Positions 25,774 to 63,867 of a stretch of 64,000 nt of DNA are shown here, one piece after another. This DNA comes from a virus (lineage: Duplodnaviria > Heunggongvirae > Uroviricota > Caudoviricetes). The stretch is taken from IMG/VR virus record IMGVR_UViG_3300013137_000008; one strand, written 5' to 3'. Below the pieces are notes generated by a model. That model saw only the letters and a program-made list of their open reading frames with translations, searched no databases and was not told where the DNA came from. How positions within the stretch are numbered: the stretch's first letter is position 1; each line of letters starts with the position of its first letter. Both the position numbers and the translations under genes were made by a program.

Positions 25774-26095
25774 CTCCGTTAAAATCTTATTTGCGTTTTA
25801 TTACTCTCTAAATAGGCCGAAAGTGGTCGAATCCCCTCGGCCTATCGCTGGGAATAATGAAATTACTGTCTGCCTTTGTGCATATGGGCTATATTGTTTG
25901 TGTCAACGATTGCTGTAATGTAGCCCATCTCGACTAATAGTTTCCATTCTGTACTGTGATATTGTACATACATCACTAACATAATCTGTTACCTCCATTT
26001 ATTAAATTTTGTGTCCTATTGTTAAGTATATACTGTTGTGTACGCTTGTCAAGTACTTATTTGACATAAGGGTTAAGGCATTTAAGATATTTACC

Positions 26096-27004: not shown

Positions 27005-27008
27005 AACT

Positions 27009-27251
27009 TCACCGTCCTTTATATTCGCGTTGTTCTATTCTTAGACCAAAACCGATGCTATGTTGGAGTAGATAGATTAAGTAGTCCTGAGCTTCCTCCC
27101 GTGTGCTAAAGGAAATCCAATTATTGCGTTGATAAACTAATTTGCCATGCATGCTTTTACTATGATCGTTTTCACGGTATGCGCTTAATGGTATCCCCGA
27201 TTTGTTTACTAATACAAAATACTCCATTGTTGACACCTCCAAATTTAGCAA
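27009..27251 (-). CDS. Hypothetical protein
   Basis: 80-aa ORF. Confidence 0.35.
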   Translation of the reverse strand: MLNLEVSTMEYFVLVNKSGIPLSAYRENDHSKSMHGKLVYQRNNWISFSTREEAQDYLIYLLQHSIGFGLRIEQREYKGR

Positions 27252-27482
27252 ATTTGCGCTTGATTATAACGCATGATAGCTAACAGGATACGCATTCCGT
27301 ATGATCCTTTGCACATTTCATACATTCCGTATCAATGGTTTTTATTATTCGCATTGAACCATATTCCCTATATTGGCAGTTGTTATGGTACATGCAATCT
27401 AAACAACTATACAATCGCTTATATGACCTGTATAAATTGCACCAAATGGTTTTAGATAGTTTCATGTTCAACACCTCCGAAT

Positions 27483-28136
27483 TTAGCAAATTTGCGATTG
27501 TACTTTAATCATTAAATCATCAGAATAGCGGTTATACCATAGCATAGATTTATAACTCCACCTAAAACCTAAATCACGTAGAGTATTCAGTACGCTATCA
27601 TCCGGCCTTGATCCGAATTTGATCTCTATACCGTTTAGTTTGTCATTGTGTGTTATGACTGATTTGCCATCGTCAACGGTTTGCAGTTTAGATTGTGTGG
27701 ATTGCTTAACTGGTTTATCATCCTTGTAGTTTATAGAATATGAGCGTATGCCGTGAAAGATTATTTTATCATTGATTGATATTTGATATTCAGTACCTAA
27801 AGGTATTTTAGAGCGTTCAATCAGGATAGCATCTTTAAAGCTCATTCCGGCATCAGCAGTTCCAAAAAATCCACCAACCTCATTCTCTATGCCGTGATAA
27901 ACATACGTACTCTTGACATTTTCAGGTTTATGAATCTTGATTGTTTGTATGTTTGGTTTATCATCCTGGTATAGTTCAGGATAAAATGCTTTACGTGTAG
28001 ATTGTTTAGCTTGTTTGATTGTCAAACCGTGTTTGCGGATATGATAAGTTAACTGTGTATCTAATTGTTGCATCCTATGTGTGGTGGTTATGGTCTCATT
28101 GCATATGGGGCAGTTTATTTCTTTGCGATCCTGCAT
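27483..28136 (-). CDS. Hypothetical protein with N-terminal CxxC
   Basis: 217-aa ORF; INCPICNE. Confidence 0.45.
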   Translation of the reverse strand: MQDRKEINCPICNETITTTHRMQQLDTQLTYHIRKHGLTIKQAKQSTRKAFYPELYQDDKPNIQTIKIHKPENVKSTYVYHGIENEVGGFFGTADAGMSFKDAILIERSKIPLGTEYQISINDKIIFHGIRSYSINYKDDKPVKQSTQSKLQTVDDGKSVITHNDKLNGIEIKFGSRPDDSVLNTLRDLGFRWSYKSMLWYNRYSDDLMIKVQSQIC

Positions 28137-28163
28137 ATTAGCACCTCCATATTTTAAGGTATA

Positions 28164-28367
28164 TTAACTGTTGATTGCTTTGCGGAATTTTGCTTCATCA
28201 AAATGTGGATTGTCGGCCTTGAGCATAGCGCATAAGTCATTAATGAATCTTGATAAATTGAGATGTTCGCAATTCATCATTTTAGTAATTCCGTTGTCGA
28301 TCCACGTTTCTGTAACAATATTATTCTTGATGATTGCCGCCAGTTTGATATAATCCTTTTTAGTCAT
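28164..28367 (-). CDS. Hypothetical small protein
   Basis: 67-aa ORF. Confidence 0.35.
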   Translation of the reverse strand: MTKKDYIKLAAIIKNNIVTETWIDNGITKMMNCEHLNLSRFINDLCAMLKADNPHFDEAKFRKAINS

Positions 28368-28379
28368 GTTTTAGTCCTC

Positions 28380-28884
28380 CATTTATTATCATATTTGCTC
28401 ATTATGGAGCATACCTTATATTAAACGCCTTGTTTGACATTGTCAAGTATTATTCAATAAATCCTGTAAATATTTACTAAATTAAATAAAACAAATGTAC
28501 TATTAATTAATTATTTAATATACAGTCTCATATAAGACTGTTTTGGCAATATTCAATTAATATCGAATTATTTAATTTTCAGCCTTAATTTTGGTTGTGA
28601 CTGATCCAGTCTATAAATCCAGTCTAAGCGCATGACTGTATTTTAAGACTGTTTATCCTGTGGATTTATAGGCTATTTTACGCTGATTTATACGTGAATT
28701 TCAAGCCTATTTTACATAATAATTAGGTAATTAAATGCAGGTATCCAGTCGGTGAGTTTTGAAAAAGGCGGTCTCGTATGAGATTTTACGGCGGGTTTTG
28801 ACCTGGTTTTCAAGGCCTGGTGGAGAGCGGAAATTAGAGGGAAATTATCTTATATACTGTATATAGACTGTGAGTGGCATGTGG
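28380..28884. repeat. AT-rich non-coding region with repeated AGACTGT/CAGTCT words, an inverted repeat ACAGTCT-N6-AGACTGT and short direct repeats; candidate origin or regulatory region
   Basis: acagtctcatataagactgt (28522..28541), ccagtctataaatccagtcta, gactgtattttaagactgt, tatagactgtgag (28862..); GATTTATA x2; ctattttac x2. Confidence 0.5.
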
Positions 28885-29646
28885 TCACTGTAGGTTTAGT
28901 CGTGCCTCTACGTCTGCTTTACGTCTGCTCTTGCGTGGCTTGTGAATGAAGTTATCTATCTTGTTAGATGAGTAGGTTAGACTACTATGATGGGAACAGT
29001 GCGGACAACCTGTGCCATTCTGATTGCGGTTTGCTATGATTGCTTCATAAGGATGTCCATTGGGGCAAATCCAATGAGCTAATTTATGGGAATAAGGTGA
29101 GTAGTCATTGGGCGTTAAGGCATTGAGTTTATAATCCCATTCTTTTGCGAGGTTTGGGTTTTGTGTAGCAAGTGAGATGGTAGGGTTGATGTTCCGTTGT
29201 TTATGACACTTTGGACATTTAGAGCCATTGACTCTATGCGCTACCCGTGTCTCCCAACTGTTGCCACATTTACACTTCCACCAGTATGATCGGCTACTTT
29301 TGGGAGATACTGCCTGAGGGTTGACTTTGTTTTTACTGTAATCCCATTCCTTTAACAATTCAGGGTACATAGATGCAAAATTATGTTCTTGGGTAGTGGG
29401 TTGGTTATGGCTACAGTATGGGCATCCACTTTTACCAGAGCTTTCCAATGTCCTTGAGAATATTCGTGCAGTGTATCTATGACCCTGTGGGCAAACCCAC
29501 CTTGCTTTTTGTCCACTACCATAGGTAATAGTATCTAAGTCAATGTGTTTGTTGTGTTCAAAATCCCATTCCTTAATGAGTTCGGGAAATTTGTCTTTTA
29601 ATAAGTTATCTTTCATTTCATGTCTCCTTATAAGATATAGTAACAT
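28885..29646 (-). CDS. Protein with three treble-clef zinc-ribbon repeats (DUF4379-like)
   Basis: Three repeats of KEWD(F/Y)..N...W.C..GH.(Y/W)......R...G.GCP.C. Confidence 0.65.
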   Translation of the reverse strand: MLLYLIRRHEMKDNLLKDKFPELIKEWDFEHNKHIDLDTITYGSGQKARWVCPQGHRYTARIFSRTLESSGKSGCPYCSHNQPTTQEHNFASMYPELLKEWDYSKNKVNPQAVSPKSSRSYWWKCKCGNSWETRVAHRVNGSKCPKCHKQRNINPTISLATQNPNLAKEWDYKLNALTPNDYSPYSHKLAHWICPNGHPYEAIIANRNQNGTGCPHCSHHSSLTYSSNKIDNFIHKPRKSRRKADVEARLNLQ

Positions 29647-29830
29647 AGAATATTGTATTTGTCAAGAGTTGTCCATGTGGTGAATGTAGATACAAAAATG
29701 TGTCGCTAACAATGAGTTATTAGGGTAGAATAGTCTTGACATAAAGAAAGATTGTGCTATATTGAACACAAGATGTTAATCGCACAGTCTGTGCAACAGG
29801 AGAAAAGCTATCGGTGGTGCATTTGGTGAG

Positions 29831-30013
29831 ATGATGATGGCTGCCATTGGTGGCGTAGTCTGCTTCGTGGTTATCAAGGAAGTCATGGATGGGCAAAATA
29901 CCACGAGTTGGTCTACTTTGGAGATCACTCTGTTCACGACTATCGTCCCGTTATTGGCTGCTATCGGTGTCATCTTCGCTATCTTCGCAATCTTCCAGCG
30001 GATGACTCGCTAA
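29831..30013 (+). CDS. Small membrane protein
   Basis: Two TM helices; GGTGAG upstream. Confidence 0.3.
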   Translation: MMMAAIGGVVCFVVIKEVMDGQNTTSWSTLEITLFTTIVPLLAAIGVIFAIFAIFQRMTR

Positions 30014-30121
30014 CACCAGGCGTAAAAAAGTGGTTCGTGCAAACGATAATGAGAGCGATTACTTCGGTAGTCGCTCTCGCCATGTTTTTTGTGGTATAAT
30101 AAGGTAAAAAGGAGTCATGGA

Positions 30122-30328
30122 ATGTTAAAGCCTATAATGATATCGTCAGTGGTGTCAATGGTGGTGTATGCAACTCTTTCTTGGGTGGTGAAGTTCTTGG
30201 GGTGGACTGGGAGCAATGATGTGGAGTCGGCGTTGATTCAAGTGGTACTTCCTTTGGCAGTGGCTATCTGTGTTATTTTTGTTGTGTTTGGCTTTGTGAT
30301 AAAAGTTAGAAAAGCTGGAAAGGGCTGA
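30122..30328 (+). CDS. Small membrane protein
   Basis: Two TM helices; AAGGAG upstream; start at MLKPIM. Confidence 0.4.
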   Translation: MLKPIMISSVVSMVVYATLSWVVKFLGWTGSNDVESALIQVVLPLAVAICVIFVVFGFVIKVRKAGKG

Positions 30329-30506
30329 TAGGGCGTAGTCAGTCTTTAAAGGATTAGCTCCTTGCTTGAAAAAGTGAGGGGCTTTTTTCTTTTCAACTGC
30401 GGTTGAAAAGCATATCTTTTCCCTAATTGCGATTAAAAAGCATAGGTTAGCGACAAAAGACTTAAAAAACGTTGACTTATGTAGGTATAGTATGTATATT
30501 GGAAAT

Positions 30507-30656
30507 ATGGGTAAGTACTGTCCATTTTGCAGGTGTAAGCGTCCTCTTACCAAAGCAGGGGTGGCATATGGGGCGCATGGGCAGGCTGTGCAGAGGTGGA
30601 AGTGTACTAATAAAATGTGTAGCAAATTTACTATTAAGCCCTTAAGTGTGAAATGA
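30507..30656 (+). CDS. IS1595/InsA-like zinc-ribbon small protein (49 aa), candidate regulator
   Basis: MGKYCPFCRCKRPLTKAGVAYGAHGQAVQRWKCTNKMCSKFTIKPL. Stop overlaps the ATG of the giant gene. Below the ORF-track size cutoff. Confidence 0.5.
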   Translation: MGKYCPFCRCKRPLTKAGVAYGAHGQAVQRWKCTNKMCSKFTIKPLSVK

Positions 30657-33600
30657 GACACAGAAGTTTAAGTATATTATGCCTGCTGATTATACTCTTT
30701 AGTATAGTTAGTGTCTTTCTTGTTCCGCCTGCTCCTGTATATGCGGCATCGGATTTATATTGGGTGCATACTTTAGGTGGAAGTGGTACTGGGTCATGGT
30801 CTAATACGTCTTGTTGGTCAGCTACTTCAGGTGGTGCTGGTGGGGCTGGAGTACCTAACTCTACAGTAAATGTACATTTTGATAATATGTCCTTTAATGC
30901 AGTAGGACAAATTGTAACAGTCGATGCCACGGCTAATTGTTTATCAATGGATTGGACTGGAGCGAGTAATACACCAACACTGGCGATGGGCACCAATACT
31001 ATAAACATATATGGTAACTGCACGTTTATTGCTGTAATGGCACAGACATCATCTGCTGGCGGCACTCTGGATATCAAAGGTGTTTCAACAATAACAACCA
31101 ACGGGCTATCCTTGACCTCTGGAGTAACAGTGGGTGGAGCAACAGTTACTATCCAACTTGCAGACGCTTTAACTACTTCAAGAGATTTTACATTTACTGG
31201 TGCATCAACAAGTCCAACATTTCAAACGAATAACAATACAATGAACGTAAGGACGTTCCAAATCACCGGAAGTGGTGCAGGAACAAAAACATTAACTCTT
31301 GGCAATTCAACAATTAACATTGCGTCTAATGTGGCTGTGGGATGGGATTATGCAGGTTCAAATCTAACCTTAACAGCGAATACTGCAATAATCAATATTG
31401 CAGGAGCAGGGAACTTCAATGGTGGTGGTATTACAACCTACAACACAGTAAACCTCAATGGCACAGCCCATACCGTATCGGGCAACAATACCTTTGTAAA
31501 CTTCTATAGGAATGGGACAGCCACCAAAACAGACACATTGACATTAACCAGTGGCAGTACACAAACCGTAACAGGTGAATGTGGATTAAAAGGCAATAGC
31601 GCTACAAACAGACTTTTGGTGCAAAGCTCAACTCTTGGCTCAGCGGCTACCATTGATTTAAGTGCAGGTGGGAAATGTAAGACAGCCACAACCACACAGA
31701 ACGTAGACTTCATGGATATAACCATGTCCAATGGAGCAGCCAATGAAAGAGACTTATCTGCCATAACAGGATTAAGCGGTGACTGTGGTGGGAATACAGG
31801 GATAACCTTAACTACAAGCGCAACTCAAACATCAGGCACTACGGATACATGGTCAACAGCAGGCAAATGGACAAGCCGTGTACCACTTCCACAGGATGAT
31901 GTTAATTGCTCCCATAACTCTACAGTAGATATGCCAAGAATTGGGAGGAGTATTACATTTAGCGGGACACCAACGATAAGTTTGTCAAATGATATAAACA
32001 ACTATGGGTCATATACATTGGTAAGCGGAATGACCTATACGCACAATAGCTGGTACAATTATTTTAGAGGTAGGGATTCTTATACATTAACAAGTAATGG
32101 AAAGTCACTCTACTCTGTAAATATATCTGCCCCAACAGGGACATATCAAGTGCAGGATGACTTTACATGCAATACCAGTGGAGCGTTAAGTATTTCCTCA
32201 GGAACTTTTGACGCTAATAACAAAAACATTACAGCAGGACGATTTCTTGTTAATGGTTCATCGACCCGCACCGTTACAATGGGTTCAGGCACTTGGACAG
32301 CAAATAGGGCCACGGCAACAGATAAATGGGATGCCTCTACTACGACTGGACTTACTTTTAACGCAAATACATCTACTATAGTAATAACTAATTCATCGAC
32401 AAATGCGGAGAATTTTTATGGTGGTGGCTTAGCCTACAACAACGTAACCGTCCAGGGAGCAGGAAACTACGCCTTAACCATCAGTGGCAACAATACCTTC
32501 AACACTTTTACTGTGGATAGGTCAGTGGCGGCTAAGACGCTGACCCTGACAGCGGGTTCAAATACTACGGTCACAAATATGGTCTGCAATAAAAGCGATG
32601 CAAGATATTTGACTATCAATTCTACTGCTGGCACTGCATACCTCACAAAAGCTGGTGGTGGACAGTTAGGATTTACTAACCTTAATCTGTCGAATAATAC
32701 GGGTAATCCAGTCAATACATGGTACTATTCTCCTGAAAGCGTTATTGGTGCAAACGTAGTTAATTGGATATTGGACGCTCCACCTACAGTTACTACGGAT
32801 GGGGCATCGCCAATTGGAATGACCACTGCAAGTACAAATGGCACGATAACTTCACTAAACTTTGGCGGAAATGCCAATATTACAGGTGTTGATTGGGGCA
32901 CAGTTACAGGTGTATATGTACGTACACAGAATACTACTGGGGATTTTGGAATAGGCACATTCTATGAAAATTTGACTGGTCTGATTCAAGGTGAACTGTA
33001 TTACTTTAGAATGTATGCTTATAACGATGATGGTAGGGGAGATGGCGTTGAAAGTACATTTTTAACTAAACCTGTTGAACCAAATACATTCACCACTACA
33101 ACTTTAAATTCAACTGCAATCACCTGTAATTGGAATAAAGGACTTGGTGCGCTTAATACGGTAGTAAGATATAAGTTGGGTGGTTATCCCACAGATACAA
33201 CTGATGGTACTTTGGGTTATAATGGAACGCTGGCAACTTATCAGCAAAGCGGACTGGTTACTGACAATGTATACTTCTTCAGGGCATGGTCATGGGCAAG
33301 TGAGGGTACACGGCAACAGTATTCTGATTTATATGCTGGTAATTATACGGTAACATCAGGTATCCCTACACTTACTACGATAGCAGCGTCAAGTGTTGAG
33401 GAGACTACGGCTACAACTACGGGAATTATCACGTATTCGTATGCTAATTACACAGTATGGGGAACTCAATATGGCCTATCGTCTGGCTATGGTGGTTGGG
33501 CAAACAATACTGGTATATCTACAACTGTCCCATATCCATTCAATGATAACCTTGCTGTTCTGTCACAAGGTTCGTTATATTATTTCAGGGCTTATGCTGT

Positions 33601-41084: not shown

Positions 41085-42056
41085 ATGGGTAGGGGTTTAG
41101 GATGGTCAAAAGGGTTAACTAAGGAAACCAGTCCAAGTGTTGCTGCAAGGGCAGCTAAAATAATCGGCCATAAGACATGGAATGAAGGTCAAACTAAGTA
41201 TACTAATCCAAGTATCATGGCACAGGCGAAAAAGATGGCAGGAAGAACTAAAGAGACTGACCATGGCATAGCTATAAGGGTCTTAAAAATAACGGGTAGA
41301 ACTAAGTCAAATTATGAATATTTATTAGGAATGTCTAAAAAACGAGAAGGTTTAACCAAGGAGAGTACTCCTTGGTTAGCAAGAATGGGATGGAGTAAGG
41401 GGCAAACAAAGGATACTAATCCAAGTATTGCAAAGGCTACTATTAAACGACAAGGAAGAACTAAAGAGAATGATTTAGGAATGCTGTCGCAGTCAATTAA
41501 AATGACTGGTAGGACTAAAGAAACGCACGAAGGTATTCGTAGAGGCGTAGAGAAGAAGAAAGGAAGGACTAAGGAAAATCATAGTGGGGTTAGATCACAT
41601 GCCATTAAAATGGCTGGCAGAACTAAAGAAACGCATGATGGTGTTCGTAGGGGGGCAGAAAAGAGAAAGGGAAGGAATAAAGAGAACACACCTTATATGG
41701 CAACGATGGCAGTAAAGATTTCAGAATTATTTAAAGGTGATAAACATCCAAATTGGATTGATGGTAGATCATATTTGCTATATGGCAAAGATTTTACTCG
41801 AAGTCTACGGACGAAAATAAAAAAACGGGATGAGTACACTTGTCAATATTGCGGGATGTTGGAAGTTAATTATTGGCGAAAATTGGATGTACATCACATT
41901 GATTATGCTAAAACCAACTGTCCTGAATCCAATTTGATTACTCTTTGCCACACTTGCAATGTGCGTGTTAATCAAAATAGAGAGTTTTGGCAACGATTTT
42001 TCTCAGACAAGATATTGGTGAGGCAATTAAATGAAGGGAGTTTTATATATGGGTAG
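41085..42056 (+). CDS. HNH homing-endonuclease-like protein with N-terminal NUMOD3-like repeats
   Basis: Repeats GRTKET(H)xG(I/V)RRG; C-terminal HHIDYAKTNCPESNLITLCHTCNVRVNQNREFW, close paralog of the HNH region in 2719..3879; AAGGAG SD. Confidence 0.75.
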   Translation: MGRGLGWSKGLTKETSPSVAARAAKIIGHKTWNEGQTKYTNPSIMAQAKKMAGRTKETDHGIAIRVLKITGRTKSNYEYLLGMSKKREGLTKESTPWLARMGWSKGQTKDTNPSIAKATIKRQGRTKENDLGMLSQSIKMTGRTKETHEGIRRGVEKKKGRTKENHSGVRSHAIKMAGRTKETHDGVRRGAEKRKGRNKENTPYMATMAVKISELFKGDKHPNWIDGRSYLLYGKDFTRSLRTKIKKRDEYTCQYCGMLEVNYWRKLDVHHIDYAKTNCPESNLITLCHTCNVRVNQNREFWQRFFSDKILVRQLNEGSFIYG

Positions 42057-54469: not shown

Positions 54470-54592
54470 TTGAGTTCATCTATCGTAATAATATCATTCT
54501 TATAGTAGTCTGTCAAGTACTTTTAGATATAAATTGTTATCCACAAAAAAATGAAAGCGTCAGCTTTCTACTGTAAGTAGCATTTACTGATA

Positions 54593-54704
54593 TCTCTATT
54601 TACTGAATACTCTATTTACTGTAGGGTGAACGGTGGTTCATTACTGTGGTGAACGGTAGTTCAGCAGGGGGTGAACAGTGGTTCAGTAGTGAACGGTGGT
54701 TCAC
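54593..54704. promoter_or_regulatory. Candidate operator array: direct repeat CTCTATTTACTG x2 followed by four copies of the palindrome GTGAAC-N4-GTTCA(C)
   Basis: gtgaacggtggttca (54626), gtgaacggtagttca (54649), gtgaacagtggttca (54671), gtgaacggtggttcac (54689); GTGAAC and GTTCAC are reverse complements. Confidence 0.6.
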
Positions 54705-54827
54705 CACATAATATAACATGATTAAGGTAGTCAAGTAGGCTTGACTACTCAGTAGTTTTATGGGCAGTAGTTCTATGGGTGATACTACTGTTTGAGGTGC
54801 AGAAATTTGCGCCTAAAGTTTCTATAG

Positions 54828-54942
54828 TTGCACAAGCATATATAATATGGTATAATAGAGTAGCAAATGGCAATAGCGGTCAAAATAGCACAGCAATGGA
54901 TGACGCAGGTGGTTGACATAGGCTAATACAGTATGCTATAAT
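54828..54942 (+). promoter_or_regulatory. Tandem sigma70-type promoters: TTGCAC-N17-TATAAT and TTGACA-N18-TATAAT
   Basis: ttgcac aagcatatataatatgg tataat (54828..54856); ttgaca taggctaatacagtatgc tataat (54913..54942); ATG at 54972 with GGAGGA SD. Confidence 0.6.
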
Positions 54943-55222: not shown

Positions 55223-56164
55223 ATGGAAGACACGGTGTGGGGGCGGAGTTTTAAAGAGATAGCCCCTGTTCTGCCTGTTGCAAGGGAACCTGAGCCTTGG
55301 GGAAGGAACTTACCTCAAAAGGTAGGGGGTAAAATGGGTATACCTCAGTGGGTTGGTTGGGGTGGACTTGGGATTGGTACGTGTCTTGCTCTTGGTGGAA
55401 CATTTATACCTATACTTGGGGTTGTCCCTATGGTAGTAGGTGGGATACTTGTCTTTGGTGGTGGAATAGTATTAGGTATAGGTGATAAATTAAGAGGTCA
55501 TTTGGGAAATGATGTTGTTATAGATGAGCAAGAAACCCCACAGGTGGAATCTACTTTTTGGATTGCCAATTCCGTAGTATCTTTACAGAGAGACTTTCGT
55601 AAACTAAAGGCACTTAATGAACTTAATCGAACGGTTGAATTGGTCAATGCCTATAACTTAACAGCGCAGGAGATATCTCGTATTAAGGAATCTAATGTGT
55701 CTAGTTTTGGCGTTACAACACAGATAGAGCCGCTCGCTACCGATGTATTCAGACAAGGATTACTATTCCTTTGTAGTGTGAGGGATTTCCTTAGTCTAAT
55801 TAAGGCAGAGGATGAGGGAAAATTACAGGGTATTGTCATGTCCCTTAATGATGAAATAGAAGAACTGTCTAAAAGTGGGTCGGCATTAGCTGCTCAAACA
55901 CTTGAACTTAAGTTTAGTTCACTTAGATATACGCAAGATCGTATCTTGAATTTGTCAACTAATAGAGAGTATGTTGCCCTATTAGTTGCTCGTGTAGAAG
56001 AATGTGAGAATATATTGAGGGTGACGTTTGATAACCTCACAAAGCTCAATATTGAGGATTCAGCAAGTTCAGTGGATGAAATACGGCATAGGTTACAGAA
56101 TTGTATCAATTTTGCCATTGAAGTAAGAAAGGAGATAAATAAAGCATGTCTCGAAGTATCGTAA
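55223..56164 (+). CDS. Membrane protein with Gly-zipper TM helices and a long coiled-coil domain
   Basis: GIPQWVGWGGLGIGTCLALGG...VVGGILVFGGGIVLGIG, then heptad-rich sequence. Confidence 0.5.
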   Translation: MEDTVWGRSFKEIAPVLPVAREPEPWGRNLPQKVGGKMGIPQWVGWGGLGIGTCLALGGTFIPILGVVPMVVGGILVFGGGIVLGIGDKLRGHLGNDVVIDEQETPQVESTFWIANSVVSLQRDFRKLKALNELNRTVELVNAYNLTAQEISRIKESNVSSFGVTTQIEPLATDVFRQGLLFLCSVRDFLSLIKAEDEGKLQGIVMSLNDEIEELSKSGSALAAQTLELKFSSLRYTQDRILNLSTNREYVALLVARVEECENILRVTFDNLTKLNIEDSASSVDEIRHRLQNCINFAIEVRKEINKACLEVS

Positions 56165-56475
56165 AGGTTATGGAAACCAGTGAGTTGCCTAAAGATTTTG
56201 AGGAGTCTTTCTATGCTAAGGTAGCAGAGCATAGGTTTTGTCCTAAATGTGGTAAAGAACGTAGTTTTGTTATTACAGGTAAAGAGGCAAATGGGTTTAA
56301 TACTAAGACTGGCAAGGTTATGTATTCGTATATAGGAATGGGGCATTGTAACGGGCACCAATGCTTACCTTGTAAACTTGAATTATGCAGAACGAATGAT
56401 GGCTCATATGAGTGGCACAATCAATACGAGTCACAATGGTATCCACCATTTAAAGATAAGACAGCGTGGTATTAA
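56146..56475 (+). CDS. Multi-Cys/His zinc-finger protein (possible binuclear treble-clef, RING-like)
   Basis: FCPKCGK...GMGHCNGHQCLPCKLELC...WH. Confidence 0.45.
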   Translation: MSRSIVKVMETSELPKDFEESFYAKVAEHRFCPKCGKERSFVITGKEANGFNTKTGKVMYSYIGMGHCNGHQCLPCKLELCRTNDGSYEWHNQYESQWYPPFKDKTAWY

Positions 56476-56494
56476 GAGATAGGAGAGTAGAATT

Positions 56495-57679
56495 ATGGGA
56501 ATAAACATTTTAGATCAATCAAAAGCACTTAGTATAGATGTTCAAAAGCCTAAAGTACCTGAGAAGTTATCGGATAAGGAAAAAGAACAGATAGAGTCTA
56601 TGGCTGACCAAGTGGTAAAGAAGTTGGAGTCATCCGATGGTTCGCAGATAATCGAGTATATTGAGCAGGTTGGTAATGTGGGATTTAAGGCGCAGCAGTC
56701 AGCCTCAACAAAACTTGACCTTTTTCAAAGTAGGATGGGACAGGTTTTTAACCACAAAGAATCGCTGTCTAGTCAAATAACAGACGATGTGGTGTCGCTC
56801 AAAAAGGCAATGCGTAGCATCAATCCGTCTGATATTAAGAAGGAATGGTTGGTATCATTTCTTGAGGCGTTGCCATTTGGGAATAAATTGGTTAATGTCT
56901 TACAGAGGATAGACGTTCGTAGAGAAAGCGTTGAGAAGGTTATCTCTACTATTGAGGCAAGTCTTACCAATGGGCGTAATATGATAGTAAAAGATAATGC
57001 TGAGTTGGGCGTACTCCATAAAGACCTTGAAGGGACTCAGACAGTTGTGCAGAAGAATGCGTATTTAGCTGAGGTGATGGCTGAAAAACTTGATGAACTG
57101 ATTGCCAACACAGTTGATACGCAGAAGCAAGGTCAATATAAGAACGTTTTGTTCAGAGTTGTTACTCGTGGGCAGGATTTACGTGCCATGGAAGCGGCCT
57201 ATGAGCAGTTCTTCGTATCTATCAAACTGACTAAGGAAAACAACTCGCTTCTAATAGATACGTCTCAGCGAATGCTTACTTTAGCGATGCCTGTCTTGTC
57301 AGTTGCCTTTGCTATTCATGTTGCTCTTGCAGAGCAGGGTAAAGTCCTTGATGCGGTTAAGGCTACCCGTGACTTTATCGGCGGTATGCTGATACAGAAT
57401 GCTACTGCTATCCGTGACAACATCAAGGAAACCGCCGAACTTTACAAAGAACCTATCATTGCTATCCAATCTATCGAAAAGGCACAGCAGATGCTTGTAC
57501 AGGCTATTGATGAAGTTGATAGGTTAAAGACAGTTGGAATTCAGACAGCTAGAGAGAACATCATGAAACTTAAGTATATATCTGAGGAGATGAGGCAAAA
57601 GGCTGAGGGTAATGCAGGAACGATTATGTCCCTTGAAGCTAACGATTATAAAGTTTTACCGAGTGGAGAAGAAAAATGA
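56495..57679 (+). CDS. TelA/KlaA-family protein (toxic anion resistance protein-like)
   Basis: 394-aa all-helical. LSDKEKEQIESMADQVV ... IKKEWLVSFLEALPFGNKLVNVLQRIDVRRESVEKVISTIEASLTNGRNMIVKDNAEL parallels the TelA/YaaN conserved core. Confidence 0.65.
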   Translation: MGINILDQSKALSIDVQKPKVPEKLSDKEKEQIESMADQVVKKLESSDGSQIIEYIEQVGNVGFKAQQSASTKLDLFQSRMGQVFNHKESLSSQITDDVVSLKKAMRSINPSDIKKEWLVSFLEALPFGNKLVNVLQRIDVRRESVEKVISTIEASLTNGRNMIVKDNAELGVLHKDLEGTQTVVQKNAYLAEVMAEKLDELIANTVDTQKQGQYKNVLFRVVTRGQDLRAMEAAYEQFFVSIKLTKENNSLLIDTSQRMLTLAMPVLSVAFAIHVALAEQGKVLDAVKATRDFIGGMLIQNATAIRDNIKETAELYKEPIIAIQSIEKAQQMLVQAIDEVDRLKTVGIQTARENIMKLKYISEEMRQKAEGNAGTIMSLEANDYKVLPSGEEK

Positions 57680-57978
57680 CAGAAAAGAATGAGTTTGACG
57701 CACTAAAGCAGTTATTCAATGACCCTCGAATTGGGGCAAAGTTTTTAAACATAGTGGCAGATGTTAAGGATTTGGGTAGTGCTATTTCTGAGAAGTTGAA
57801 GAGCAAAGAGTGCCAGGATGAGATAAACAAGGTCAAATCTACGTTAGGATTGGATAGTTGTCATGGGTGTGATGGGAAAGGATGGATAACTATAGGCAAA
57901 GATGAGGCTTTGAGACCCACAATGTGTCCGATTTGCAATGGAACGGGGAAGAAGCAGGATGAGCAAAAAACGGTATAA
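57676..57978 (+). CDS. Small protein with DnaJ-type CxxCxGxG zinc finger
   Basis: CHGCDGKGW...CPICNGTGKK. Confidence 0.45.
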   Translation: MTEKNEFDALKQLFNDPRIGAKFLNIVADVKDLGSAISEKLKSKECQDEINKVKSTLGLDSCHGCDGKGWITIGKDEALRPTMCPICNGTGKKQDEQKTV

Positions 57979-58717
57979 CGGGAACCTTTCTGCTGATAAG
58001 TTCATAAAGGAATTAGAGAAAGTCCCTGCTAAGGCAGCAGAAATCACCAAGGAGCTTCCAGTCATTGTAAGCATAGATGGCAAGTCGTATAAACTTTTGC
58101 CATGTGAAGAAGTGGATTATAAAGAAGTTATATTTGAATACGTGGAGACTTATCTAAAAGAAACTGTCAGTGCAATGAAGGGACAGGTTAAGGAATTTGC
58201 CTCTCGTTTGCAAGATAAAATTGATGAAATCAGTCTATCTCAAACAAAACAGTATCCTCCGCCACCCACTCTTGAGTTTGTAATGAACAACGATATGCAG
58301 ATAGCGGTTAAAGGCGGTTTATACTACTATATCCTGCCTTTTAACTATACTCCACAGTTATTGAGTGGTAGGAAGATTACAGGTGCAGACAAGTTATCTA
58401 GAGAGGTATTGATATTTTTTGGCTATGATACTAACAAAAAAGGAGAGTTTATATTAGAGAGTGTTGAACTGCGTAATTATAATATGAGTGCTTTTAATCA
58501 CTATCATGATTTAAATACGGTAGGAAAGGATTGTTGGGGCAACATAAGTCTACCCATAGGTTCTGCTTATGATGTGGCAAAGTTGCCTGAATTGCGGGAT
58601 AGGTTGCAGAATTCCTTGGAGAATATCAACGGGCGTAGCCTTGCTCATAATAAGCCATCTAAATTACCTGACGTTAAGAACATAAATATAAAACCAGGAA
58701 GTGTTGTATGGAGTTAG
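57959..58717 (+). CDS. Candidate E2-like (UBC-fold) protein
   Basis: NHYHDLNTVGKDCWGNISLP resembles the E2 HPN-x(5-6)-G-x-(I)C-L active-site region; sits directly upstream of E1. Start taken at MSKKRYNG. Confidence 0.4.
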   Translation: MSKKRYNGNLSADKFIKELEKVPAKAAEITKELPVIVSIDGKSYKLLPCEEVDYKEVIFEYVETYLKETVSAMKGQVKEFASRLQDKIDEISLSQTKQYPPPPTLEFVMNNDMQIAVKGGLYYYILPFNYTPQLLSGRKITGADKLSREVLIFFGYDTNKKGEFILESVELRNYNMSAFNHYHDLNTVGKDCWGNISLPIGSAYDVAKLPELRDRLQNSLENINGRSLAHNKPSKLPDVKNINIKPGSVVWS

Positions 58718-59460
58718 ACCGGCAGAATTCTTTAAAACTGAACATCCCCGATAGTGTCTGTGTGGTAGGGTGTGGCGGTATTGGCAATTGGGTTGCGCTT
58801 TATCTTACATTAATGGGGGTACGTTCGCTTTGCTTATTTGATGGCGATAAGGTGGAAATCCATAATCTCAATCGTACTATCTTCTCAAAAGCAGACATAG
58901 GCGAATACAAAACAGATGCGCTTAAGAAGATACTTAATGCTATGCGTAGCGTGAGCATCTTATCATTTACAAGTGAGTGTTCGTCTATTAAATTAGATAG
59001 CCTAATTGAAAAACCTGATGTTTTTATGGATTGTACAGATAGACATGAAGTGCAGTTAACAATGGCAAAATGGTGTGAGAACAATAAGGTGCGATATATT
59101 AGGGTTGGGGCTAATACAAACCATATTACTGTGACTTCTAATGTAAATACATGGGGTGAATCTAAACAAGAACAATGTGGCGTTACTATACCAAGTTGGG
59201 TTGCCCCAGTTGCTCTTGTAGCAGCTTATGCTATAACAAAGCTTGCTTTGAATTCAGGCTTGGAAGTCAGTATGTCATTGGATGATGAAAACACTATTCC
59301 TGATGGAATATCTGTTGGTGAACGAGAAGGGCTAGGGAAACATAATGATATTCCTGTTTATCGTACCCTAGAACCCTTTTCTTCTCCTAATGCCAATATT
59401 CCTAATGATTGGCTTTGCTCTGAATATAGAGAAGAAGTCTATAATCAAATACGGAGATAA
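58708..59460 (+). CDS. E1-like ThiF/MoeB-family adenylyltransferase
   Basis: VCVVGCGGIGNWVALYLTLMGVRSLCLFDGDKVEIHNLNRTIF...GEYKTDALKKIL...VFMDCTDRHEVQL: Rossmann GxGxxG, D-x-D and conserved DCTD motifs. Confidence 0.85.
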   Translation: MELDRQNSLKLNIPDSVCVVGCGGIGNWVALYLTLMGVRSLCLFDGDKVEIHNLNRTIFSKADIGEYKTDALKKILNAMRSVSILSFTSECSSIKLDSLIEKPDVFMDCTDRHEVQLTMAKWCENNKVRYIRVGANTNHITVTSNVNTWGESKQEQCGVTIPSWVAPVALVAAYAITKLALNSGLEVSMSLDDENTIPDGISVGEREGLGKHNDIPVYRTLEPFSSPNANIPNDWLCSEYREEVYNQIRR

Positions 59461-59462
59461 AT

Positions 59463-59672
59463 ATGGCTAAGATTTGTCCGATTATGAGCGCAGGATGGTT
59501 AGCAAACAAATGGGGTGCTACGATAGGTGGAGCCAAGAATACGAGTGTGTTAGATAACCTCGTAGAATGTAAAGAGGAAGTTTGTATGGCTTTTGAAGAT
59601 GGTGAATGTGGATTATGCAGTAAGCTAATTTCAACAATGAAATCTAAGGATATGGGAGTAAAAGAGTGTTAG
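59463..59672 (+). CDS. Small Cys-rich protein
   Basis: CP...C.EEVC...GECGLC...C; 69 aa. Confidence 0.4.
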   Translation: MAKICPIMSAGWLANKWGATIGGAKNTSVLDNLVECKEEVCMAFEDGECGLCSKLISTMKSKDMGVKEC

Positions 59673-60361
59673 ACTTAACAAAACCAATAGTAGATTGGAT
59701 GCCTAAGAATAAAACATGGTCAAGTGATGTGCAGGTACATGAAAAGTGTATCTTGAACAATGGCACAGTATATATGGATAGCTTGGTACATGACAAGGTT
59801 CGCATGTTAACAGGACAGATATCAACTGAATGGCTGGGATACCTAATTGGCAAGGTAGATGGGACAAAGGCTTATATAGAGGATATCTTTATCCCTGAGC
59901 AATCTGTGAGTTCGACTCATGTACACGTCAAAGATCAGGTTTTGCCTGAGAACATCATAGGTACAGTCCATTCACATCATACCATGGGTAATTTCCTATC
60001 AGGGACAGATCATAGGCATTTGGTAGGTAATCACGCTGTGACTATAGTTGCCTCACGGACTGGATTGATGTCTAAAATGCGGGTAAAAGCCCCTTGCGAA
60101 GCCTTAATGCTATTAGATGCCGATATTGAGGTTGAAGACTCTGCAATGCTTAAAGAATTTTTTGAACAGAATATAACCAAGATTGAGGGTAGTGGTGTTA
60201 ATCCTAATACTCCTAAATTAAACTGGGCAGGGAAAATTTGGCGGTATCCTGCCACTGTACTTTCCAATTGGCAGTCAAGGTCGGGTAAGAATGGTATTGT
60301 CGTTGTGGTAATTGTGGTTCTTTTGGCGTTGGCCTTGATACTTTATGGTAGAGGATTCTAG
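59666..60361 (+). CDS. JAB/JAMM (MPN) metallopeptidase with C-terminal TM anchor
   Basis: E...HSHHTMGNFLSGTD fits E-x(n)-H-x-H-x7-S-x2-D; C-terminal IVVVVIVVLLALALILYG. Confidence 0.8.
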   Translation: MLDLTKPIVDWMPKNKTWSSDVQVHEKCILNNGTVYMDSLVHDKVRMLTGQISTEWLGYLIGKVDGTKAYIEDIFIPEQSVSSTHVHVKDQVLPENIIGTVHSHHTMGNFLSGTDHRHLVGNHAVTIVASRTGLMSKMRVKAPCEALMLLDADIEVEDSAMLKEFFEQNITKIEGSGVNPNTPKLNWAGKIWRYPATVLSNWQSRSGKNGIVVVVIVVLLALALILYGRGF

Positions 60362-60603
60362 TGAGCGTTAGAGAGCGCAGATTACGTAACTTAGGTAGGG
60401 ATTATCCCAAGCTTGGTAGCTATAGGGGTGATAGTTCCCATTATAAAGGGCGGGTGTTATCAATAGGTTTAGGTAGGACTATTGGGCTAATATTTGTGTT
60501 AGTATCGCTAGCGGCTATTATTATGGCAGCGACAATGATTTCTCCAATGTTTCTTATACTTATGACATTAATAGCGATACCATTTATATTTGGGTATGAT
60601 TAA
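60361..60603 (+). CDS. Small membrane protein
   Basis: C-terminal TM helices. Confidence 0.4.
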   Translation: MSVRERRLRNLGRDYPKLGSYRGDSSHYKGRVLSIGLGRTIGLIFVLVSLAAIIMAATMISPMFLILMTLIAIPFIFGYD

Positions 60604-60605
60604 CA

Positions 60606-61088
60606 ATGACTATAAAAGAACGTAGAATGCGTAATTCATACACTTCTATCAATCAATCTAGTTGGGTACAGCCTCATTGTAAACAAAAGAAGCAACGATC
60701 TAGTCCCGCTAATTCTAGTCCTGATTGGGATGTTTTGTCCTTCTTGACGCCATTTGGCGTAGTTATATTGATAATTTTATTTTGCCAACCATTTTGTAAT
60801 GGAAATGAAGGGCAGGTTGCCCAAGAGGTACAAAAGTTTAATGCTATAGTCCAAAGTGATAATTACACTCAAATGAGATTTATTTGCTCTGGGGTAGCTG
60901 AGGCGGAAGCATTTGGCAAGGTAATAGAGTACAAAGATTCTCGTTATGGCTGGTTTAGAGAAATGGCTGTTAAGAATTTAGACGGGACTATTACTGAGAA
61001 GATAGGGCTTCAGGAAGGTAAAGCTTATCAAGTCTACGAGTATAATGGGCGTTACTTTGCATCTGAGATACCTAGTTCATCGCCGTAA
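60606..61088 (+). CDS. Hypothetical membrane-anchored protein
   Basis: One TM helix; 160 aa. Confidence 0.4.
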   Translation: MTIKERRMRNSYTSINQSSWVQPHCKQKKQRSSPANSSPDWDVLSFLTPFGVVILIILFCQPFCNGNEGQVAQEVQKFNAIVQSDNYTQMRFICSGVAEAEAFGKVIEYKDSRYGWFREMAVKNLDGTITEKIGLQEGKAYQVYEYNGRYFASEIPSSSP

Positions 61089-61141: not shown

Positions 61142-61552
61142 GTGCATAGAATCTTACCGTGGATTTTAGTTATCGCAGTAGTGGCTATTATGATAATATT
61201 GTGGATTGTCAATATGCCACCTAAATCTGATGAAGCTAAGGCAAGTGGTGGGTTTTCATGTGGGTGTGCTGCTCCTGAAGATGATTCGTACATTTCGCTT
61301 GGTAGTGGTGTTATTACTAATATAGAATATGTGAAAAAGGGCGAGAAAACATACATAAAGTTCTTGATAGATGGTACTCCAGTAACACTTGATTTTGACA
61401 AGACAAAGACGGCAGACTATTCAGAAATATATGGTACTACTAATATAGAGGAAGGAATGTACTATTATATATATGAGAAAGGGGGTAGATTAATTTGGTC
61501 AACAACACCTAAGCCCACAAGGGATAGAAGTAAAGTAAATGAAAAGGAGTAA
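61142..61552 (+). CDS. NfeD-like small membrane protein (TM plus beta-rich C-terminal domain), SPFH partner
   Basis: GTG start; N-terminal TM; paralog of 62416..62895 (IDGTPVTLDFDKT...YYYIYEKGGRLIWSTTPKP). Confidence 0.45.
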   Translation: MHRILPWILVIAVVAIMIILWIVNMPPKSDEAKASGGFSCGCAAPEDDSYISLGSGVITNIEYVKKGEKTYIKFLIDGTPVTLDFDKTKTADYSEIYGTTNIEEGMYYYIYEKGGRLIWSTTPKPTRDRSKVNEKE

Positions 61553-62375
61553 AAGAGTGAAGGAATTTGAATGGAACGGTTGGAGCACTGCAGGTGTCAT
61601 ATTGGCGTTTATCTTTGTATTGATTACATTGATTGGTGGTATAGTGACTACGCCTGCTGGTCATACTAATATCGTGCTACAGTTTGGCAAAGTAGTTGGG
61701 ACTAAGGCAGAGGGGTTGTCTTTTAAGATGCCCATAATTGAGAATGTGGTTACTATGAGTTTGCAGACTCAACTATATTCGGAGTCGGCATCTGCGGCAA
61801 GCAAGGATTTACAGGATGTGAACACAAAGGTAGCAATCAACTATCGTGTCGATCCTATATATGTTTCTGAGATTTATCGTACTTTAGGAGTGAACTATAT
61901 AGACAAAATAGCTGCTCCTGCTGTGCAGGAAGTAGTCAAGGAAATCACAGCTCGCTATAATGCTGAAGATATGATACTTAGGCGTGCAGATGTCAAAAAC
62001 GACATCACTAATTCCTTGAGCCAACGTTTACGTGAGCGTGGGATAATCACTGAGACAGTCAATATAACTGACTTCAAGTTTTCTCCAGTGTTCACTCAGG
62101 CTATTGAATCTAAGGTGTCTGCATTACAGGCAGTCTTAGAAGCGCAGAATAAGCTTGAGCGTGTTCGTGTTGAGGCGCAACAGGCTAAAGCGCAAGCTGA
62201 GGGTGAAGCAAATGCGGCAGTGGCAAGGGCAGAAGGTCAGGTCAAAGCCATTGAGATTCTGAAAGCCGCCTTAACCCCTGAGTATCTTCAGTATATCTAC
62301 ATTGATAAATTAGCAAAAGATGCTAAGGTTATTGTAGTTCCACAGGGTATGCCTCTAACTCTTTCGGGTTATTAG
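61539..62375 (+). CDS. SPFH/band-7 (stomatin/prohibitin-like) protein
   Basis: N-terminal TM, SPFH core, Ala/Gln/Glu-rich coiled-coil tail AQQAKAQAEGEANAAVARAEGQ; true start may be the GTG at 61557. Confidence 0.7.
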   Translation: MKRSKRVKEFEWNGWSTAGVILAFIFVLITLIGGIVTTPAGHTNIVLQFGKVVGTKAEGLSFKMPIIENVVTMSLQTQLYSESASAASKDLQDVNTKVAINYRVDPIYVSEIYRTLGVNYIDKIAAPAVQEVVKEITARYNAEDMILRRADVKNDITNSLSQRLRERGIITETVNITDFKFSPVFTQAIESKVSALQAVLEAQNKLERVRVEAQQAKAQAEGEANAAVARAEGQVKAIEILKAALTPEYLQYIYIDKLAKDAKVIVVPQGMPLTLSGY

Positions 62376-62415
62376 AAGCAAGAATGCGATAAAACAACAT
62401 GTAAGGTAGAATAAA

Positions 62416-62895
62416 GTGCTTAAATACATAAATTGGTTCATTGTATGGGTAATTGCATCAGTCATAGTAGTATTTGCCACGGGTGGTATATCTACAGATA
62501 ATGTTACTGTACCACAAATGTCGTGCGAGTCTAAAGATATGCAGAAAGTGGATAAACCTACTGAGAGTGTACAAACTAAGGATAACTTTAGCTGTGGGTT
62601 TAGACTCTCAGGGTTAACCCTTATATCTAAGGGCATTGTGCGTAATATAATGATTGATAAAAACGCAGAACCAAACACAATCTCATTTGAGGTGGATGGT
62701 CAGCCAATGACTTTAGATTATGACAAGACGGTATCTCGTAGTAGAATAGACGTGCAGATATATAATAAGGATGGGAAGAAAGTTATAGAAGAAGGGAAGT
62801 ATTATTATATCTATGATTGGGACAATTTTAGAATAGTATGGTCACAAACACCCAAAATGTTGGATGGAGGTTTATTAGCGGATTTGAAAGAGTGA
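62416..62895 (+). CDS. NfeD-like small membrane protein (paralog of 61142..61552)
   Basis: N-terminal TM; VDGQPMTLDYDKT...YYYIYDWDNFRIVWSQTPK. Confidence 0.45.
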   Translation: MLKYINWFIVWVIASVIVVFATGGISTDNVTVPQMSCESKDMQKVDKPTESVQTKDNFSCGFRLSGLTLISKGIVRNIMIDKNAEPNTISFEVDGQPMTLDYDKTVSRSRIDVQIYNKDGKKVIEEGKYYYIYDWDNFRIVWSQTPKMLDGGLLADLKE

Positions 62896-62949
62896 AGATT
62901 GGTTTTGTAAGTACGGATTCAAAATAAAACATAAGGAGCGTTTTAGAAA

Positions 62950-63867
62950 ATGGTAGGTCTTATATTCATCTTGGTAGGTGTAGGTCTATTCCTAATCTTG
63001 GCATTGGCAACTTCTATATTTACAGTCAGACAACAGACGGCAGCGGTTATTGAACGGTTTGGCAAGTATGTGCGGACAGTGGGGCCTGGTATTCATATGA
63101 AGTGGTTTTTTGGTATTGAGTCGATTGTCGCTCGCCCAACTCTCAGAATTAGCCAGTTAGACTTGAAAATGCAGTCAAAGACTAAGGATGATGTGACTGT
63201 GACTTTGCAACTGGCAATCCAGTACGTGATACCAACTATGGATAAGATTTGTGATGCGTACTACAAGCTTATCAACCATGAACAGCAGATTGAATCATGG
63301 GTATTTGATGTAGTTCGTTCTAAAGTCCCTAACTTGACTATGAACGAGGTTTATGAGAACAAAGACGAAATCGCTAAGGACGTAGAGGACAGGCTTAAGG
63401 AACGGATGCACATCTATGGTTTTGAGATCGTGAGGGCGTTGGTGAACGATGTAATTCCACCTTCTAAGGTTATGGAAGCGATGAATGAAGTTAATACTCA
63501 GCAAAGGTTACAGGTTGCTGCTTCAGCAGAGGGTGAGAAGAACAAAATTCTTACCATCAAAGCCGCAGAAGCACAGAAGGAGAATAAGATTCTCCAAGGT
63601 CAGGGTATAGCAGGAGAACGGAAAGCTATCATGGAAGGTCTTAAGGAAGCGGTTGAGGACTTCAAGAAAGGCGTACCTGGGGCTACTTCCAATATGGCTA
63701 TGAACCTTTTGGTTCTCACTCAATACTTTGACACTCTCCAGACTTTTGGCAAGAGCACAAACGGCAAAGTTGTCTTGCTACCGTCTAACCCTGGAGCTGT
63801 AGGTGATTGGCAAAACCAGATACTATCAATGCTTGTGGCTGGTAGTGAAACTAAGACAAAGGAGTAG
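62950..63867 (+). CDS. SPFH/band-7 protein (second copy)
   Basis: N-terminal TM; QTAAVIERFGKYVRTVGPGIHMK...; AAGGAG SD. Confidence 0.75.
   Translation: MVGLIFILVGVGLFLILALATSIFTVRQQTAAVIERFGKYVRTVGPGIHMKWFFGIESIVARPTLRISQLDLKMQSKTKDDVTVTLQLAIQYVIPTMDKICDAYYKLINHEQQIESWVFDVVRSKVPNLTMNEVYENKDEIAKDVEDRLKERMHIYGFEIVRALVNDVIPPSKVMEAMNEVNTQQRLQVAASAEGEKNKILTIKAAEAQKENKILQGQGIAGERKAIMEGLKEAVEDFKKGVPGATSNMAMNLLVLTQYFDTLQTFGKSTNGKVVLLPSNPGAVGDWQNQILSMLVAGSETKTKE

Follow-up and report, generated by a model that had tools for sequence, protein, structure and literature searches.

A TelA module nested within a candidate ubiquitin-like conjugation operon of a probable phage

The 64,000-nt DNA stretch analysed here, the IMG/VR virus record IMGVR_UViG_3300013137_000008 (hereafter the window), carries a plus-strand gene cluster in which a TelA-family protein and a membrane protein are encoded among a candidate ubiquitin-like protein (Ubl), a candidate E2 (E2c), an E1-like adenylating enzyme and a JAB metallopeptidase (Table 1). 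Between 54972 and 60603 on this strand the genes overlap or are spaced by 2-19 nt, and we read the run of genes from 54972 as one bacterial-type operon. The promoter listed in Table 1, which lies 30 nt upstream of the first operon gene, was the top scorer across the 11.4-kb region scanned, and a GGAGG ribosome-binding site precedes the ATG. An earlier note had described the interval as a TelA/KlaA-family protein plus a Gly-zipper coiled-coil membrane protein embedded between the Ubl gene and the E2/E1 genes. The position is confirmed as a gene order, with Ubl and E2 as candidate identities, and all the genes named in the note are present; the interval additionally holds genes for a 109-aa Zn-ribbon protein and a 100-aa Zn-finger protein, which the note had not listed.

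Table 1. Features of the operon and of its control region, with coordinates in the window
Feature	Coordinates	Strand	Basis or remark
Four operator-like sites GTGAAC-NGT-GGTTCA, 18-23 nt spacing, palindrome-like	54624-54709	.	repeat and inverted-repeat search
Sigma-70-type promoter TTGACA-18-TATAAT, extended -10 TG	54913-54942	+	12/12 consensus match
Candidate ubiquitin-like protein (Ubl), 82 aa	54972-55220	+	putative, from size, position and motifs
TelA-partner membrane protein (TMCC), 313 aa, unnamed family	55223-56164	+
Zn-ribbon protein (ZnR), 109 aa, CPKCG ... HCNGHQC	56146-56475	+	weak Zn-ribbon profile matches
TelA (toxic anion resistance protein family, PF05816), 394 aa	56495-57679	+	Pfam
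Zn-finger protein, 100 aa: helical N-terminal region, C-terminal CxxCxGxG...CxxCxGxG	57676-57978	+
Candidate E2 (E2c), 259 aa	57938-58717	+	putative identity
E1-like adenylating enzyme (ThiF/MoeB/E1 superfamily), minimal 250-aa form	58708-59460	+
Cys-rich small protein, 69 aa	59463-59672	+	1-2 copies in related operons
JAB/JAMM metallopeptidase, 231 aa, C-terminal transmembrane anchor	59666-60361	+
Two small membrane proteins, 80 and 160 aa, N-terminal x-[IV]-[KR]-ERR[LM]RN	60361-61088	+
Two tandem pairs: small membrane protein + SPFH/Band-7 protein	61142-63867	+	PF01145, E = 7.8e-27 and 2.8e-29

TelA and its conserved position in related operons

The 394-aa protein is a TelA homologue, as had been proposed: its full-length match to PF05816 (E = 2e-37; 129.5 bits against a cut-off of 30) covers residues 57-369 and profile positions 14-329 of 332. 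The accompanying label KlaA has to be dropped, since the IncP homologue of TelA, identified by tblastn, is annotated klaB. A search of 5.8 billion clusters yielded 13 close TelA homologues, every one of them with a PF05816 match. The contigs of these homologues were compared with the window, together with 11 more metagenomic loci, using the window proteins as queries.

The order Ubl-TMCC-ZnR(1-3)-TelA-Zn-E2c-E1-Cys(1-2)-JAB, in which TMCC stands for the 313-aa membrane protein (hereafter the partner) and the brackets give copy numbers, is common to the window, the group L002/3/4/12 and L010; a fourth lineage, L051, has TelA-Zn-E2c-E1-Cys-JAB in the same order. Protein identity between these four lineages is 52-72%. 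TelA is present in all four syntenic operons and the partner in the three that extend far enough upstream; of the two outcomes that the earlier note named as refuting its proposal, a missing TelA profile match and loss of these genes from syntenic operons, neither was observed. The small Zn/Cys proteins vary in number: the Zn-ribbon protein occurs once in the window, three times in L002 (8963-9975) and twice in L010 (6334-7222), and the 69-aa Cys-rich protein once in the window and twice each in L002 (12970-13411) and L010, with the rest of the operon fixed. Homologues of the 100-aa Zn-finger protein were found in L002, L010, L051 and L026. In L010, an 80-aa fragment (6657-6896) duplicates the C-terminus of the partner protein.

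The E2c family comprises four members in 5.8 billion proteins, and all four are encoded beside TelA. The remaining metagenomic loci of the initial set, with TelA proteins 36-45% identical, contain none of Ubl, E2c, E1 and JAB. Outside the four lineages, blastn of the operon against curated phages gave no match; tblastn of TelA against the same phages recovered four unannotated gut contigs at 21-24% identity; relatives of TelA or E2c were not found in IMG/VR; and clade-specific TelA patterns had zero matches in GTDB genomes. Literature searches retrieved no report tying TelA to Ubl systems. What is new at this locus is a small phage clade with a TelA complex nested in an E1/JAB cassette that also encodes a candidate Ubl and a candidate E2.

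The partner family and the autonomy of the TelA module

The partner contains one long hydrophobic stretch (residues 49-89), of sufficient length for two membrane-spanning helices, so that the membrane part of the earlier description holds. The rest of that description does not. Instead of a single long coiled coil, the AlphaFold2 (AF2) model, which is of low confidence (predicted local distance difference test, pLDDT, 47; built from 4 sequences), is all-helical over residues 110-310 with seven helices of 19-34 residues each. Neither is a conserved Gly-zipper present: the sole (G/A/S)xxxGxxx(G/A/S) match in the window protein, GLGIGTCLA at residue 48, is not conserved in position, and the transmembrane (TM) segments of the homologues are Gly-rich, with the motif varying in position and number.

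Close homologues of the partner number only 4, and a profile search of 1.84 billion representatives extended the family to 41 members, which have in common a C-terminal domain of ~190 aa (with motifs such as ETYRQGL and CEASL) and differ in their N-termini. BLASTP of the window partner retrieves Chloroflexota partners directly. Direct pairwise and small-profile comparisons of the window partner with L005-type partners were not significant, and the homology of the two emerged only with a 42-sequence profile. As judged from these comparisons, the 313-aa protein belongs to a so far unnamed family, the conserved domain of which has no Pfam, NCBIfam or PDB sequence match, and is a partner of TelA by gene adjacency.

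Several candidate relationships of the partner were rejected. PF10112, the XpaC family, matched none of the 42 family members (E <= 0.01); conversely, the partner-family hidden Markov model (HMM) did not match Clostridium butyricum XpaC at E <= 10, with an hhalign probability of 0.2%. Homology to TelA itself was likewise rejected by hhalign. The best Foldseek match in PDB (E = 0.027, TM-score ~0.2), to helical toxins of the ClyA/AhlC/XaxA type, was treated as uninformative.

Scanning one genome per GTDB species identified 22 loci of the partner family, mostly in Dehalococcoidia, Anaerolineales and Thermoflexus (that is, mostly in Chloroflexota). A TelA gene follows downstream on the same strand in 20 of the 22, usually directly; one or two genes intervene in three loci. 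The 42-sequence HMM further showed that the gene upstream of TelA belongs to the family (E from 1e-17 to 1e-65) in L005/6/7, L009, L014, L016, L019 and L021, which are all the non-Ubl metagenomic TelA loci with upstream DNA, and family members also precede TelA in L026, L028 and L052. The partner family and its near-obligate adjacency to TelA are the firmest new result of this work. They give the TelA proteins of Chloroflexota and related phages an 'XpaC-like' partner of their own, the second of its kind and not homologous to XpaC, and imply that TelA generally acts as a two-component membrane complex.

Both TelA and the partner of the window are closest to the Chloroflexota pair, TelA being 34-39% identical to Chloroflexota TelA versus 21-25% to TelA of Firmicutes and Proteobacteria. 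Ubl, E2c, E1 and JAB are absent from all 22 partner-family genome loci. In the two nearest outgroups, L026 and L052 (TelA 56-59% identical), the order is OmpA-like-TMCC-TelA-...-SBP, and in L026, a non-Ubl locus, the Zn-finger protein is likewise encoded after TelA. Because the pair is found in places where Ubl, E1 and JAB are lacking, we conclude from these gene neighbourhoods that partner and TelA, with or without the Zn protein, form an old independent module, which was joined to the Ubl cassette in one small clade.

Some further associations of the family were observed. In the Chloroflexota loci L029-L050, the pair often lies beside a gene for a large multi-TM SBP-like and vWA membrane protein, and the conserved domain of the partner also occurs in fusions, with a Ser/Thr protein kinase in P0054 and with DUF2167 in P0035; these fusions and neighbours hint at a signalling input to the TelA module. 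On the Vibrio alfacsensis plasmid pSEA2 (L024, 3006-3779), a hypothetical 257-aa protein encoded directly upstream of TelA gave a marginal match to the partner HMM (E = 3e-6, in a small search and partly over the TM region). Because this match sits among VWA, OmpA-like and SBP genes, the family may extend to Proteobacteria.

The candidate conjugation cassette and its possible coupling to TelA

The identities of E1 and JAB are secure. The E1-like protein matches PF00899 (ThiF; E = 7.3e-30), contains the nucleotide loop GCGGIGN and is assigned by NCBIfam to generic ThiF/MoeB; its PDB relatives at similar scores are MccB, MoeB, PaaA, UBA5, ThiF, Uba1 and Cap2. JAB scores 27.2 bits against PF14464 (Prok-JAB; cut-off 25), is 60-67% identical to its counterparts in L002, L010 and L051, and carries the metal-site motif HSHHTMGNFLSGTD, an exact HxHx7SxxD at residues 102-115, as well as a C-terminal TM helix (204-231). 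This anchor and the membrane proteins encoded after JAB place the cascade at the membrane.

The other two components are plausibly, from their size, position and motifs, a Ubl and an E2. The 82-aa candidate Ubl is 61-63% identical in L002 and L010 and has a ThiS-like VNG...D.V pattern; hhalign against the E. coli ThiS and MoaD sequences puts this segment where it would be expected, but non-significantly. Its C-terminus (...QPFDEAG-S in the window) is an invariant QP[FY]DEAG plus one residue, which is compatible with trimming by JAB. E2c combines a long helix, a four-strand beta meander and a conserved HYH-x7/8-DCWG loop. The 100-aa Zn-finger protein encoded ahead of E2c gave a sub-threshold match to DnaJ_CXXCXGXG (E = 0.0034).

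One way of reading these genes dispenses with protein conjugation: the small protein would serve as a substrate in the manner of ThiS/MoaD or MccA, with JAB trimming its C-terminus and the ThiF-like enzyme adenylating it for sulfur transfer or for modification of a peptide or small molecule, and with the 259-aa 'E2' and the small Cys-rich proteins as unrelated accessory factors. JAMM proteases do trim extended sulfur-carrier proteins, as in CysO/Mec+ and QbsE/QbsD; here, the top E1 matches are ThiF, MoeB and MccB, several Cys-rich small proteins are encoded in the operon, and profile and fold searches detected neither an E2 nor a Ubl signature. However, the operon includes no rhodanese, cysteine desulfurase or biosynthetic enzyme; its E1, a minimal adenylation domain, is devoid of the C-terminal region with the CxxC zinc site; the small protein ends in AG-x, not GG; JAB is membrane-anchored; and in the 259-aa protein the conserved His/Cys loop that follows the beta meander is more in keeping with a thioester carrier of the E2 kind. 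We regard a sulfur-carrier or peptide-modifying system as very unlikely.

Our preferred reading, to which we assign a probability of only about 40%, is that a membrane-anchored Ubl cascade is functionally coupled to the TelA module in an accessory operon of a probable phage or other mobile element. It draws on the conserved nesting, on how tightly the genes are packed, on the occurrence of the E2c family only beside TelA and on the membrane anchor of JAB. An envelope module consisting of the membrane partner, TelA and the DnaJ-type zinc-finger protein would be lodged inside a membrane-anchored cassette for Ubl conjugation and deconjugation. In this model, the membrane-seated partner would hold or restrain peripheral TelA at the inner face, by analogy with XpaC, which is thought to act likewise on TelA in Firmicutes. 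The membrane-anchored JAB would clip the single residue beyond the conserved Gly of the 82-aa Ubl, the ThiF-type E1 would adenylate the exposed Gly, and Ubl would be handed to the conserved Cys199 of the 259-aa E2 candidate. Ubl might then be joined to a lysine, either in the TelA complex or in a protein recruited to it, switching the activity or stability of the module, and JAB would reverse the step by removing Ubl. The biological purpose might be to protect or manipulate the membrane of the infected cell. The identities of Ubl and E2, every biochemical step, the target and the purpose are what we infer from the genes.

Several observations weigh against coupling. The candidate Ubl had no significant match in Pfam, NCBIfam, PDB (single-sequence and profile searches) or by hhalign, and the candidate E2 was unmatched in every profile or fold search, including Pfam and PADLOC. 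The AF2 models, one of them that of the partner, are poor (pLDDT 47 and 56) because each family has only 4 close members. With Ubl and E2 unconfirmed, the conjugation cascade is only half verified. No acceptor lysine or target motif could be singled out. The combination is carried by only four lineages, all metagenomic, which may share one ancestral arrangement that is so far unbroken. Finally, 20 genome loci, 8 metagenomic loci and the two nearest outgroups have the pair but none of Ubl, E1 and JAB, and, the module being far commoner without the cascade, coupling is not required for its function.

The main rival, since the module is normally autonomous, is therefore mere juxtaposition: the partner-TelA-Zn module and the Ubl/E1/JAB cassette would have been joined once in the ancestor of the clade and would be co-transcribed only through a shared variable accessory region. 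The pair is self-sufficient in those 20 genome loci and in ~10 metagenomic loci, and E1/JAB/Ubl operons that lack TelA are well known (PMC1779556); moreover, only four related lineages combine the two, and the content after JAB varies by lineage, the SPFH pairs occurring in the window alone. What speaks for coupling instead is that the module separates the Ubl gene from its enzymes in every lineage, that the order is constant at 52-72% protein identity despite the changes in copy number of the Zn/Cys proteins, that the gene overlaps are typical of translational coupling, and that no member of the E2c family was found away from TelA. Juxtaposition appears unlikely, if by no means far-fetched. 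The proposal of the earlier note that the membrane module is a target or an effector of the conjugation cascade is partly supported: the nesting conserved in four lineages speaks for it, and the autonomy of the pair elsewhere limits it. Should the link prove only positional, the value of the locus is limited to the annotation of a new TelA-partner family.

A defensive role, in anti-phage activity or superinfection exclusion, would couple the same components differently: a Bil-like Ubl cascade would sense or tag the invader, and TelA and the partner would serve as a membrane-perturbing abortive-infection effector, like the TM effectors of the cyclic-oligonucleotide-based antiphage signalling system (CBASS). 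Resistance to phages and colicins has been associated with loci of the ter/TelA type, and klaB is part of a host-lethal kil operon. The E1 of the window matches the PADLOC Cap2 E1-E2 models (to 9e-16), the element bears mobile-element genes, and operons of Ubl, E1, E2 and JAB are established defence systems (10.1101/2023.09.04.556158, PMC10557695). Against this, PADLOC gave no above-noise match for the operon proteins other than E1, the module in cellular genomes adjoins SBP-vWA and OmpA-like genes rather than obvious defence genes, and the window operon follows a giant open reading frame (ORF) and precedes SPFH genes, outside any defence island. We consider defence improbable.

A further reading, which we hold to be very improbable, is that the tag of the phage-borne Ubl system goes onto the membrane or onto a complex of TelA, partner and SPFH proteins that organises it, much as Atg8-type lipidation or the ubiquitin-ESCRT link would look in a prokaryote. 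Removal of one residue would expose Ubl, the membrane-anchored JAB would be an Atg4-like processing and recycling enzyme, and the E2, with its long N-terminal helix, would complete the set. If true, the long-unknown role of TelA would be that of a Ubl-regulated membrane remodeller.

To return to the coupling of a Ubl cascade to TelA, which we prefer, its interest lies in the TelA family itself, which decades of work have linked to tolerance of tellurite, bacteriocins, daptomycin and phages, with a mechanism lacking; the hypothesis offered here is that conjugation of Ubl at the membrane acts as a switch for TelA activity.

The small membrane proteins encoded 3' of JAB start with a shared sequence, M-x-[IV]-[KR]-E-R-R-[LM]-[RH]-N (60361-60400 and 60606-60645 in the window). 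The ERRLRN-type motif is also found in L002 (14102, 14364, 14750 and 7581) and in L010 (12524), in L002 additionally closing a TM protein encoded 5' of the Ubl gene, and among all the loci fetched it is confined to those of the Ubl type. The 160-aa protein (p160) has homologues in L002 and L010. The motif could be a recognition tag for the conjugation cascade. As a candidate conserved acceptor lysine it is weakened, because Arg replaces Lys in the first window copy.

The carrying element and comparison with known systems

The window contains phage-type genes (DnaB helicase, HNH homing endonucleases, Q-like antiterminator and nucleoside deoxyribosyltransferase), together with PHROG families of unknown function, an IS-type transposase and giant unannotated ORFs; the related TelA loci carry Rad52, SSB and QueC/QueF/GTP-cyclohydrolase genes. 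No tRNA genes are present in the window. From its gene content, the element is probably a large bacteriophage of an uncultured bacterium, or another mobile element; its phage status we infer, the window showing neither a capsid nor a terminase gene. The host is possibly a member of Chloroflexota.

Three huge, nearly unannotated ORFs of 1153 aa, 1564 aa (weak fn3 match) and 3312 aa (no Pfam match) occupy 30653-52675, the last of them stopping 40 nt ahead of the small genes located before the operon region. At ~26000-30700, gene orientation flips from minus to plus and the cumulative GC skew has its lowest point, making this region a candidate replication origin or divergent transcription centre. 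The presence of several HNH/NUMOD homing endonuclease genes along with one for a DDE_Tnp_1 + SWIM transposase (2719-3879(-), 15443-16693(-), 28885-29646(-) and 41085-42056(+)) indicates that the window is heavily colonised by selfish elements. In L002, a TnpB-like gene and a resolvase gene adjoin the operon.

The 500-bp divergent intergenic region 5' of the operon includes, besides the four operator-like sites, two tandem 15-16-nt repeats (54582-54613 and 54750-54779). The four sites are probably an operator array for the divergent genes encoding a 77-aa Zn-ribbon (InsA-like) protein and a 166-aa protein. At the other end, the two SPFH pairs each begin with a small protein that has an N-terminal anchor (136 and 159 aa) and close with an SPFH/Band-7 protein (278 and 305 aa); the two small proteins have in common a C-terminal GxYYYIY...W motif, and the arrangement resembles NfeD-SPFH. 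The pairs have no homologues in the related operons L002 and L010, being window-specific among these loci, and are possibly the distal section of the operon's transcription unit.

The closest parallel in layout is xpaC-telA (yaaN) of Firmicutes (Bacillus, Listeria, Enterococcus and Clostridium), in which, as here, telA is immediately preceded on its strand by the gene for a membrane protein with TM helices at the N-terminus and a helical cytoplasmic domain; in the C. butyricum locus compared here (L023), xpaC directly precedes telA. The xpaC-telA pair is tied to the envelope stress response and to tolerance of membrane-active antibiotics (PMC6811118, PMC12791056): in Enterococcus faecium, the phenotype of an xpaC deletion requires intact telA (PMC6811118), and in Listeria, telA alters tolerance to envelope-active antibiotics (PMC12791056). 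In contrast to these pairs, the window partner is not detectably homologous to XpaC, and our literature search found no Ubl, E1 or JAB reported with xpaC-telA. The sequence comparisons make the 313-aa protein XpaC-like in layout and not a member of the XpaC family. The klaA-klaB(telA)-klaC(telB) operon of IncP plasmids (the kilA/tellurite operon) similarly combines a PF05816 protein with membrane-associated partners in a mobile-element operon; however, the window TelA is only 21-22% identical to klaB over 57% of the protein, the gene partners are different, and the IncP operon is without Ubl machinery.

With the Ubl-E2-E1-JAB operons (class '6d' of Iyer, Burroughs and Aravind; the BilABCD antiphage system), the window operon shares separate genes for a small, putatively Ubl-like protein, E1 and JAB plus a candidate E2, on mobile DNA. 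It differs from them in that its candidate E2 and Ubl are not recognised by the Pfam Prok-E2 and Prok_Ub or the PADLOC models, its JAB is membrane-anchored, and a three- to four-gene TelA module and several small Zn/Cys proteins are inserted between Ubl and E2. A TelA-in-Ubl-operon context is not listed in PMC1779556 and was not found in literature searches. In type II CBASS, with Cap2 (E2-E1) and Cap3 (JAB), conjugation is likewise reversed by a JAB protein and the system is often paired with membrane effectors; the window E1 matches Cap2 both in PADLOC models and in PDB chains. Unlike type II CBASS, the operon has neither a CD-NTase nor an E2-E1 fusion, and the substrate would be a free small Ubl instead of the C-terminus of an enzyme.

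Atg8/LC3 lipidation by Atg4, Atg7 and Atg3, and the ubiquitin-ESCRT link of Asgard archaea and eukaryotes, offer a functional analogy only. In the former, removal of a short tail exposes the C-terminal Gly of a Ubl at a membrane, the membrane-organising proteins here putatively being TelA, the partner and SPFH proteins; homology with any specific component of the window is not demonstrated, and a lipid acceptor here is purely conjectural. Taken with these systems, the operon would extend the known bacterial systems that resemble ubiquitination, which are growing in number, by a membrane-anchored variant carried by a phage.

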